6,825 bases of DNA from a virus (lineage: Duplodnaviria; Heunggongvirae; Uroviricota; Caudoviricetes): the IMG/VR virus record IMGVR_UViG_2609460344_000002. One strand, written 5' to 3'. A program made the position numbers. How positions within the stretch are numbered: position 1 is the first letter of the stretch; every line of letters begins with the position of its first letter. This document shows positions 3,001-6,000 of this stretch, piece after piece.

Positions 3001-6000
3001 TGTGACTCTTAAACGGGCCTGTTCCCTGCTGACGGTGAAATCCTTCAGTGAGGATGAACGGGTGATCACCGGGATTGCGTCAACGCCTTCTCCGGATCGG
3101 GATGGTGACATCCTGGAGCCGGAGGGCGCGGAGTTTGGCAGTGCGATCCCGTTTCTCTGGCAGCATGACCATTCCCGCCCGGTGGGGCAGTGTACGGTGC
3201 GCCGGGTCAGCGAAGGGCTGGAAATCACGGCAACACTGGTGAAGCCCGTACCGGATATGCCGTCGCAACTGGCTGCCCGGCTGGATGAGGTCTGGGCGGC
3301 CATTAAGACCGGGCTGGTCAGGGGGCTGTCCGTGGGCTTCCGTCCCCATGAATACACCTTTCTGGACGGAGGCGGACTGCATTTTCTGCGCTGGGAACTG
3401 ATGGAGGTGTCTGCCGTCACCGTGCCCGCGAATGCGGAATGCACCATCCGGACCATTAAATCTTACGACCGCCCGTTTTCTGCCGCGTCCGGCAACCGGA
3501 AACCGGTGGTGAAAATCGCATCTTCTGCCGGCGCTGCGGCACAGTCAACAACCGTTTTTCATAAGGAAAAGACCATAATGAATATTGGCGAACAGATTAA
3601 AAGTTTTGAAAACAAGCGTGCAGCGCTGGCAGCCTCCCTTGAGGAGGTCATGACCAAAGCCGCAGAGGAAGGGCGCACGCTGGATGTGGAGGAGGAAGAG
3701 CATTACGACAACACCGCAGCGGAAATCCGTCAGGTGGATGCGCACCTGAAGCGCCTGCGTGAACTGGAAGCCGGTAAGGCCGCCACGGCGCAGCCGGTGA
3801 AACAGGCCGGTAACGGGAATGTGGCCGCGGTGGCTTCTGCGCCGGTGATCCGTGTGGAGCAGAAACTGGATAAGGGGATTGGCTTCGCCCGCTTTGCCAA
3901 ATCGCTGGCTGCGGCTAAAGGCGTCCGATCTGAAGCCCTGGAAGTGGCCCGTCGTCAGTATCCGGATGACAGTCGTCTGCATCATGTCCTGAAATCGGCA
4001 GTGGGCGCGGGGACCACCACGGATCCGCAGTGGGCAGGCAGCCTGTCTGAATATCAGGAATACGCACAGGACTTTATTGATTACCTGCGTCCGCAGACCA
4101 TTATCGGGCGATTTGGTCAGGGCGGGATCCCTGCACTTCGTCAGGTGCCATTCAATATCCGTGTGCACGCCCAGGTGTCCGGCGGTGCTGCCGGCTGGGT
4201 GGGTGAGGGTAAGGCAAAACCCCTGACGAAGTTTGATTTTGAATCCATCACCTTCAGTCATGCGAAGGTGTCGGCCATTGCGGTACTGACGGAAGAATTG
4301 ATCCGTTTTTCCAGTCCGGCTGCTGATGCACTGGTCCGTAATGCGCTGGCGGAAGCGGTGGTGGCGCGTCTGGATACAGACTTTGTGGACCCGAAAAAAG
4401 CCGCAGTGGCAGATGTCTCCCCGGCGTCCATCACCCATGATGTGAAGGGCACGGCATCAACCGGTAACCCGGATGCGGATGCAGAGGCTGCGTTTGGACA
4501 GTTTGTGGCAGCAAACCTGCAGCCCACCGGTGCGGTCTGGCTGATGTCCAGCACCAATGCCCTGGCACTGTCCATGCGTAAAAATGCGCTGGGTCAGAAG
4601 GAATACCCGGACATGACCCTGCTGGGTGGCTCCTTCCAGGGGCTGCCGGTGATTGTCTCCCAGTACGTGGGTGACCAGCTGGTGCTGGTGAATGCCCCGG
4701 ATATTTATCTGGCGGATGACGGCGGCGTGGCAGTGGATATGTCCCGCGAGGCATCACTGGAAATGCAGTCTGAGCCGGGCGGCGACAGTACCACGCCGTC
4801 CCCGGTGGAGCTGGTTTCCATGTTCCAGACAGGCAGCGTGGCCATCCGTGCGGAGCGCTGGATCAACTGGCGTCGTCGCCGTACCGCGGCGGTGGCGGTG
4901 ATCACCGGAGTGAACTACGGCAGTGCGTCCGGCGGCTGAGTCTGATAAGGAGGACGGGAGGCGTGCGCCTCCCGTAACAGGTTATGGCAAAGATCCGATA
5001 TCTGCAGGGCACGCATGATGCCCGGGCCGGGGATATCCGTGATGTGGCACAGCCGTGTGCGGAGGTGCTGGTTCGCCTGGGAAAGGCGGAGTACATCACG
5101 GTGCGACGTCCGGCAGGTCAGAAAAAGAAACGTGATGCGGAGCATGGCGAATGTGGAACCTTTTACGGCGAACCCGAAAAAACCAGAAATCAGGACGTGA
5201 CGTAAGAGAGGCGGGCTGGACCAGCCTGTTTCAGGCGGTGGCTGAGCCCTTTTCCGGCGCCTGGCAGCAGGGCGTGAAAGCCGATCCTGAAGCCGTCCTC
5301 TCCTTTCATGCGGTGTTTGCATGTATTTCGCTGATATCCCAGGATATCGCCAAAATGCGGCTGCGTCTTATGCAGACGGATGCGCATGGGATACGCAGGG
5401 AAACGCGCCGGGGGGATATTGCCCGCCTCTGTCGTCGTCCCAACGCCCAGCAGAACCGCATCCAGTTTTTTGAACTGTGGCTGAACGCCAAACTGCGTCA
5501 CGGCAATACGGTGGTGCTGAAAATCCGTAATGCCCGGGGGCAGATCAAAGAACTGCGTATTCTGGACTGGAGCCGGGTTGAACCTCTGGTGGCGGATGAC
5601 GGCGAGGTGTTCTACCGCATCACGCCGGACCGGAACTGCGGGATCACGGAGGCGGTGACGGTGCCTGCCCGGGAAGTGATCCACGACCGGTTTAACTGTT
5701 TTTTTCATCCGCTTATAGGATTGCCGCCGGTGTATGCCGCCGGGCTGGCGGCCACGCAGGGGCATCATATTCAGGAAAATTCGACGTCTTTTTTCAGAAA
5801 TGGCGGCAGGCCGTCCGGGGTGATTGAGATCCCCGGCAGTATTACGGAAGAAAATGCGAAAAAACTGAAGAGCAACTGGGACAGCGGGTATACAGGCGAA
5901 AATGCGGGGAAAACGGCCATTCTGAGCAACGGGGCAAAATACAACCCCACGACGTTTTCACCTGTGGATGCGCAGACGGTGGAACAACTGAAGATGACCG

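Follow-up and report, generated by a model that had tools for sequence, protein, structure and literature searches.

Positions 3002 to 4939 of the IMG/VR virus record IMGVR_UViG_2609460344_000002 (Duplodnaviria; Heunggongvirae; Uroviricota; Caudoviricetes) hold a head gene in which a prohead protease and a major capsid protein are joined in a single open reading frame (ORF). The gene was analyzed within the stretch of 6,825 nucleotides available for this record, hereafter the window. A first-pass annotation, made from the DNA alone, had described the ORF as free of internal stop codons and had placed at its domain boundary an AAGGA motif (3563-3567), an in-frame ATG (3578), and an out-of-frame TAA (3562-3564). 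All of these positions were confirmed (Table 1), and the ATG is codon 193. Across 3002-4939, the coding frame contains the terminal TGA and no other stop; the two alternative frames have 24 and 34. The TAA at 3562-3564 lies in the −1 frame, and a second out-of-frame TAA, at 3576 in the +1 frame, overlaps the start codon as TAATG. The absence of a separate scaffold gene from the window, also stated in the first-pass annotation, agrees with the gene content between the large terminase gene (terL) and the portal gene, where the sole other ORF is a 73-codon frame at 4984-5205.

Table 1. Features of the protease-capsid fusion gene and its immediate flanks (aa, amino acids; SD, Shine-Dalgarno; pLDDT, predicted local distance difference test)
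Feature	Position	Strand	Remarks
Terminator-like hairpin GAACCGC-TCCG-GCGGTT plus T-run	2963..2989	+	Between the terL stop (2936-2938) and the fusion-gene SD
Upstream SD AGGAGG	2991..2996	+	5 nt 5′ of GTG 3002; duplex with the 16S rRNA 3′ end, −10.3 kcal/mol
Protease-capsid fusion ORF	3002..4939	+	645 codons, GTG 3002 to TGA 4937-4939, 69.0 kDa; in order: protease, linker, delta-like domain, HK97-fold capsid protein
S78 (HK97 gp4 type) prohead serine protease domain, aa 1 to ~154	3002..3463	+	Pfam PF04586, invariant columns, model
Disordered linker, aa 154-192	3461..3577	+	pLDDT <50; variable in sequence and length, homolog alignments gappy
Island of A+T-rich, weakly structured sequence at the internal start	3548..3607	+	30% GC versus 60% gene-wide
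Internal SD TAAGGA	3562..3567	+	Duplex with the 16S rRNA 3′ end, −6.2 kcal/mol; contains AAGGA 3563-3567
Internal in-frame ATG, Met193	3578..3580	+	10 nt 3′ of TAAGGA; proposed start of a stand-alone capsid precursor
Nested in-frame ORF, delta-domain-plus-capsid precursor	3578..4939	+	453 aa, 48.2 kDa
Delta-like (scaffold-like) helical hairpin, aa 193 to ~265	3578..3796	+	Model helices 195-222 and 229-262
Disordered segment, aa 266-283	3797..3850	+	pLDDT <50; likely maturation cleavage region, by analogy with delta removal in HK97
HK97-fold capsid body, aa ~284-645	3851..4936	+	Foldseek, PF05065; ~38 kDa if cut near aa 284
73-codon ORF, phrog_829 (unknown function), ECs_1794 in Sakai	4984..5205		Between capsid and portal genes

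The N-terminal part of the protein matched the Pfam family PF04586 (Peptidase_S78) over residues 48 to 152, at 34.7 bits against a cut-off of 21. TIGR01543, a stricter equivalog model for the prohead protease, scored 46.4 and thus stayed below its cut-off of 59, and scans of the protein against Pfam and NCBIfam gave no match to the ClpP or S49 protease families. Across 38 homologs with 37 to 53% identity, three residues were invariant: H55 (3164-3166), S110 in the motif GLSVGF (3329-3331), and E135 (3404-3406). By this invariance, H55 and S110 are the putative catalytic histidine and serine of the protease. The serine motif had been assigned correctly in the first-pass annotation, at 3329; the histidine had been placed at 3170, which is H57, two codons downstream of the invariant one.

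An AlphaFold2 model built on 38 diverse homologs (mean pLDDT, 80.7) was confident for the protease domain at residues 1 to 142 and for the C-terminal body. In the model, Met193 falls exactly at the transition from the disordered linker to the helical delta-like domain. The suggestion that a delta-like coiled coil extends from 3578 onward is therefore in keeping with the predicted pair of helices and the disorder that precedes them, and a weak coiled-coil Pfam match was found at residues 189 to 210. The capsid assignment is supported by PF05065 (Phage_capsid; residues 386 to 635, 52.7 bits against a cut-off of 24.2) and by TIGR01554 (HK97 major capsid; residues 204 to 584, 78.3 against 27.5), whose alignment begins near the N terminus of the TIGR01554 model. 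Foldseek matched the capsid body to the capsid proteins of Bxb1, D3, HK97, and T5 with a probability of 1.0 and a target-normalized TM-score of at most 0.74; the search was informative for the capsid part alone, as capsid matches filled the list. A sequence search of the PDB returned a single, weak match, to the Bxb1 capsid, and no protease structure. The NCBIfam model NF045541, named "prohead protease/major capsid protein fusion protein," aligned to residues 48 to 287 with 54 bits and did not reach its cut-off of 525.

The ORF is 100% identical to ECs_1793, annotated as "phage prohead protease" in prophage Sp9 of Escherichia coli O157:H7 Sakai. Among 5426 complete E. coli genomes, 1252 carry a full-length copy. 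The head module as a whole is 95 to 99.6% identical to those of the Shiga toxin (Stx)-converting and related phages 2851, YYZ-2008, BP-4795, 1717, and WGPS6, in whose records the gene is labeled "major head protein/prohead protease" or "major capsid protein." A single family in PHROGs, phrog_617, covers the protease and the capsid domain, which meet at profile position 191/192. Proteins of 644 to 648 amino acids with both Pfam domains and approximately 75% identity occur in Salmonella, Enterobacter, Klebsiella, Serratia, Pantoea, Kosakonia, and others. At 39 to 54% identity, the gene remains a single ORF in Marinobacter, Hydrocarboniphaga, Chelativorans, Mesorhizobium, and metagenome-assembled genomes of Hyphomicrobiales and Caulobacteraceae, all drawn from a collection with one genome per species. 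Among the best 150 representatives of clusters at 50% identity in a library of 1.8 billion proteins, 140 were at least 590 amino acids long, and nearly all aligned end to end. The comparison of homologs for a stop codon at the junction, which the first-pass annotation had proposed, thus found relatives of the fusion gene without such a stop from E. coli to alphaproteobacteria. One IMG/VR contig (L088, locus 2501-3490, 60% identity) carries a fusion ORF broken after 329 codons, possibly as a pseudogene or an assembly error, and was left out of the statistics. Judged by these comparisons, the fusion at 3002-4939 is real and ancient, and the gene belongs to a lambdoid prophage of the BP-4795/Sp9 type. 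The fused architecture is already known: it is annotated in GenBank phage records, has its own PHROG family, and has published parallels.

Prophages of Snodgrassella alvi (L026 and L027; 32% identity) encode the protease and the capsid protein as separate genes, in the order terL, protease, capsid, small ORF, portal, which is the order of the window. The protease there is 234 amino acids long, and its stop codon is followed by a 23-nt spacer with a Shine-Dalgarno (SD) sequence and then by the capsid gene. The capsid protein begins with MTIEEQI, which aligns with MNIGEQI at Met193 of the fusion. In addition, five clusters of stand-alone capsid proteins begin at the equivalent of query residues 193 to 196, and in the alignments Met193 is paired with one of residues 1 to 5 of stand-alone capsid proteins. 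Because the S. alvi capsid and these five clusters begin at this point, ATG 3578 is the homolog of a stand-alone capsid start codon.

The signals for initiation at this codon are conserved among the fused relatives. An SD-like motif located 4 to 13 nt upstream of an in-frame ATG, GTG, or TTG was found near the junction in 23/26 fused genes from genomes, and fused loci on viral contigs likewise carried a junction SD and start. For a larger comparison, 50 fused genes were reduced to 23 lineages with less than 70% mutual identity, and a wider set of SD motifs, including the AAGGG type (lineages L011 and L013), was allowed. In total, a motif 4 to 12 nt before an in-frame ATG, GTG, or TTG was present at the junction in 22/23 lineages; given how often such sites occur in the rest of the same genes, 1.46 would be expected. 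The remaining lineage (L024) contains AAGGA-N8-ATG ten codons upstream of the anchor residue, one codon beyond the scoring window. In three GC-rich hosts, a GGAGG at the junction is the strongest anti-SD match of the whole gene. Of the 128 fusion-sized sequences aligned (the query and 127 cluster representatives), at least 116 have a methionine no more than 4 residues from the junction, and several of the other 12 carry valine or leucine there, possibly encoded by GTG or TTG. With 22/23 lineages retaining the signal and stand-alone capsids starting at the equivalent codon, the comparative support for the internal initiation at Met193 that the first-pass annotation had put forward is strong.

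The way in which the signal is conserved is informative in itself. The codon phase of the GGA/GGAG core differs between relatives: the core is read as AAG GAA in the window, as AAA GGA in Enterobacter, and as CAG GAG GGC in Hydrocarboniphaga, and across lineages it encodes KE, KG, QEG, REG, TEG, or KKG within a linker that is otherwise hypervariable. A core retained in differing phases and encoding differing residues argues for selection on nucleotides rather than on amino acids. Among 28 loci of the E. coli type, two haplotypes were distinguished, which differ in the spacer and in the upstream sequence while cATAAGGAaaag and the ATG are unchanged. The junction is also among the least structured parts of the gene, with 1.8% of its 50-nt windows equally or less structured, and a low-GC, low-structure junction was common to all Enterobacterales relatives tested.

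The two candidate initiation sites differ in their computed properties. The upstream site combines a GTG with an SD duplex of −10.3 kcal/mol and a local mRNA fold of −15.9 kcal/mol, and the internal site combines an ATG with values of −6.2 and −6.6 kcal/mol, respectively. Under the exponential energy relation of Salis-type models, this crude comparison suggests that the internal site is several-fold stronger, with an estimate of roughly tenfold that indicates a direction and not a number. No sigma-70-like promoter was found in 2800-5250, a weak negative result, as late phage promoters may differ. With no promoter-like site within the gene, translation would have to be the source of any shorter product; a truncated transcript made from an internal promoter, in the style of herpesvirus UL26.5, was considered and rejected on the same scan of 2800-5250. 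A stronger internal site would fit a fusion made as the minority product. The HK97 protease is likewise substoichiometric: Prohead 1 of HK97 contains 415 capsid subunits and approximately 60 proteases (PMC12749128).

Taken together, we consider it probable that the ORF comprises two nested in-frame genes, one for a minor 69-kDa fusion and one for a major 48-kDa capsid precursor. Under this scheme, ribosomes starting at GTG 3002 would make the 69.0-kDa protein consisting of protease, linker, delta domain, and capsid body, and those starting at ATG 3578 would make the 48.2-kDa capsid precursor, which corresponds to the C-terminal 453 residues of the fusion. The shorter product would be the bulk building block of the head, and a minority of fusion molecules would co-assemble with it through their capsid moiety, carrying the protease into the prohead by a covalent tether in place of a separate targeting mechanism or targeting peptide. 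After assembly, the protease would remove itself, the linker, and the delta domains to leave a mature capsid protein of approximately 38 kDa. Cleavage might occur within the disordered segments at residues 154 to 192 and 266 to 283, although the sites are guesses. The relative use of the two initiation sites would then determine the stoichiometry of protease to capsid protein. Somewhat less firmly, we favor extending this reading to the family, in that fusions of S78 protease and HK97-type capsid protein would generally act as two-in-one units in which the balance between the two starts governs both the dosage of the protease and its encapsidation; the extension covers at least 140 clusters at 50% identity from phages and prophages of gamma- and alphaproteobacteria.

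It could instead be supposed that the fusion alone is made, that every capsid subunit carries a protease, and that the SD motif and Met193 are an intergenic relic or a side effect of the linker's composition or of a preference at the cleavage site. Since the ORF is uninterrupted, translation from 3002 must indeed give the fusion, and a linker rich in Lys, Glu, and Gly biases the DNA toward purine-rich codons. In the available text of the papers on the Gifsy-2 fusion (PMC12315714) and on the fusions of small actinobacteriophages (PMC7302621), these genes are described with no mention of an internal start. A neutral remnant, however, should decay at 40 to 50% protein identity, whereas the SD and start are kept in 22 to 23 of the 23 lineages, in a linker that varies in length and sequence around them and with a GGA core that shifts its codon phase. 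The same account would leave the retained methionine (at least 116/128 sequences) unexplained, as well as a low-GC, low-structure island of the kind typical of initiation regions, and protease on every subunit contrasts with HK97, which has about one protease per seven capsid subunits. For these reasons, we regard exclusive production of the fusion as unlikely.

Several points nevertheless weigh against the proposal of two nested products. The nominal binomial probability of the junction signal, approximately 1e-25, is no true P value; it overstates independence because the lineages share ancestry, and the argument drawn from the 23 lineages rests on the retention of the signal within a hypervariable linker. 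The internal SD in E. coli is moderate (6 nt with a 10-nt spacer), and in that host its computed anti-SD duplex is matched or exceeded at approximately 10% of the gene's positions. Linkers rich in Lys, Glu, and Gly naturally give DNA that is purine-rich and A+T-rich. The low-structure signature is weak in alphaproteobacterial relatives, where the SD is stronger. The energy comparison of the two sites ignores standby sites and the unfolding of the mRNA by ribosomes arriving from upstream. Finally, N-terminal sequence, mass spectrometry, and ribosome profiling data were looked for, both for this gene and for its homologs, and none were found.

The out-of-frame TAA codons at the junction invite two further explanations. 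A protease-only product could be released by ribosomal frameshifting into one of them, at 3576 in the +1 frame (within TAATG) or at 3562 in the −1 frame, either besides or instead of internal initiation. In the junction sequences examined, however, both a slippery heptamer and a conserved out-of-frame stop are absent, A+T-rich sequence yields TAA by chance, and a free, untethered protease would need a targeting signal of its own, so that frameshifting appears highly improbable. The first-pass annotation had read the TAA at 3562 as the possible fossil stop of an ancestral two-gene arrangement joined by a single-base indel. This reading found no support and was rejected, as the TAA forms the first three bases of the SD motif TAAGGA and is not conserved in position. 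The extended SD consensus derived from the 3′ end of 16S rRNA is TAAGGAGGT, which TAAGGA matches. Enteric relatives carry TAAGGA, TAAAGGA, or TAAAAGGA at the junction, and GC-rich relatives have no out-of-frame stop within the 30 nt upstream of it. As the fusion is retained down to approximately 40% identity, no trace of the original joining event would be expected. The notion that the fusion arose artificially or by recent damage, through a sequencing error or a single-base indel joining two genes in a decaying prophage, might draw on these TAA codons just upstream of ATG 3578 and on damage elsewhere in the window (a disrupted terL and a homopolymer length difference in the portal gene), but it is refuted by the conservation of the single ORF, identical in the 1252 E. 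coli genomes and in many Stx phages and present at the same length across Enterobacterales and in alphaproteobacteria, and can be discounted almost entirely.

The gene itself is ordinary and annotated, and the new part is the comparative evidence on the initiation signals at the junction. If the internal start is used, a large and widespread class of head genes would both deliver and dose the protease needed for maturation by attaching it to a small share of the capsid subunits. The principal capsid product would then have been missed by annotation pipelines, and predictions of capsid size and of the proteome for these phages of the Stx type would carry an error of 21 kDa per subunit. The tethering scheme could also serve for cargo loading in engineered HK97-like cages.

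The neighborhood of the fusion gene shows several peculiarities. The arrangement of terL, protease/capsid, small ORF, and portal at 1197-6515, which is common to the S. alvi prophages, is non-canonical; HK97-like modules usually have the order terL, portal, protease, capsid. The 73-codon ORF overlaps the portal start at 5151, gave no Pfam or NCBIfam match, and has a similar small ORF as its counterpart after the capsid gene in one of the S. alvi prophages (L027). The portal ORF (5151-6515) stops at 454 amino acids because the G run at 6496-6500 has five residues, and it has an ATGA overlap with the next ORF, which starts at 6512. In Sakai Sp9, the run has six G residues and a single "portal" ORF of 860 amino acids continues into a C-terminal extension with 54-amino-acid tandem repeats. 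Phage records give the portal as one or two coding sequences, and PHROGs contains both forms (phrog_2271, with 859 positions, and phrog_8767). The difference in the G run may reflect polymorphism of the homopolymer, a site of frameshifting, or a discrepancy in sequencing.

Upstream of the fusion gene, a gene for an HNH endonuclease lies directly 5′ of the small terminase gene (35-346 and 637-1200), a pairing that is usual in HK97-like cos phages. The terL gene is disrupted: approximately 455 nt of the gene for the tail-tip attachment protein J (1658-2112; Pfam Ig_J_second, E = 1.6e-32) stand in place of approximately 374 nt in the middle of terL, which is left in three frames as ORFs at 1197-1673, 1612-2136, and 2024-2938. 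Positions 1400-2400 of the window were found contiguously in 0/5426 complete E. coli genomes. Either the prophage is a defective recombinant, or the sequence is a chimera from assembly or construction. Identity to Sakai Sp9 is 92% over 11-1657, 97% over 2113-6825, and 100% in the capsid gene, and these differing values indicate that the module is mosaic. The terminator-like hairpin at 2963-2989 falls within what should be a Q-antiterminated late operon; it was the only terminator-like site in 2800-5250, compared with a mean of 2.1 in shuffled sequences, and is not significant alone.

Nested genes of related design are known from other head modules. The lambda C/Nu3 pair is the classic case of an in-frame protease and scaffold nest. 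In Mu and PaMx73, translation also begins in frame within the protease gene, at a start codon with an SD of its own, and gives a shorter assembly product with the same C terminus (PMC4378225). As in such nested genes, an in-frame start with an SD is present here (3562-3580), and its signals are conserved among relatives. In Mu I/Z and lambda C/Nu3, the internal product acts as a free scaffold and another gene encodes the capsid protein, whereas the internal product proposed here is the capsid protein itself with its delta domain. Herpesviruses provide a more remote parallel, with a protease-scaffold fusion (UL26) and a shorter product of the same C terminus (UL26.5). The shorter herpesvirus product has its own promoter and transcript, in contrast to the gene in the window, where no promoter-like site was found. 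The C terminus of UL26 contains all of UL26.5 (PMC2949831).

Fusions of protease and capsid genes have been described in several other phages. The "tripartite capsid gene" of the Salmonella phage Gifsy-2 (Effantin et al. 2010, Virology 402:355) reportedly encodes a ClpP-like protease and a central domain of approximately 200 residues, and the Gifsy-2 capsid reportedly uses a decoration protein resembling lambda gpD. The fusion is alike in the two cases, but the protease of Gifsy-2 is reported to be ClpP-like, whereas the gene in the window encodes an S78 protease and an HK97-style delta domain; the latter gene works like that of Gifsy-2 but is no homologous member in its protease part. The fusion of the Gifsy-2 prohead protease and coat genes is also stated in a later paper (PMC12315714, citing Effantin 2010). 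In actinobacteriophages, a single gene for protease plus capsid is common in siphoviruses with small genomes (PMC7302621), and the phrase "major capsid and protease fusion" occurs in genome announcements. These actinobacteriophage fusions, which include protease-scaffold-capsid forms (clusters EE, AN, AX, FE, CW, and DM; RRH1), are distant in sequence from the gene in the window. The "major head protein/prohead protease" of BP-4795, YYZ-2008, 2851, 1717, and Sakai Sp9 is the same gene, with 95 to 100% DNA identity across the head module, and the portions of those sources that were available mention no internal start. A conserved internal start making the capsid protein in fusions of the S78/HK97 type was not found described in the literature, of which the coverage was partial, so that an earlier mention is possible.

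A further comparison is with HK97 gp4 and gp5, which share with the window gene the S78 protease family and the capsid fold with an N-terminal delta domain. In HK97, the protease and capsid genes are separate and follow the portal gene, whereas in the window they are fused and precede it. If the proposed internal start is used, the gene would join two strategies of head assembly, the nesting of protease and scaffold seen in lambda and Mu and the fusion of scaffold and capsid protein seen in HK97.

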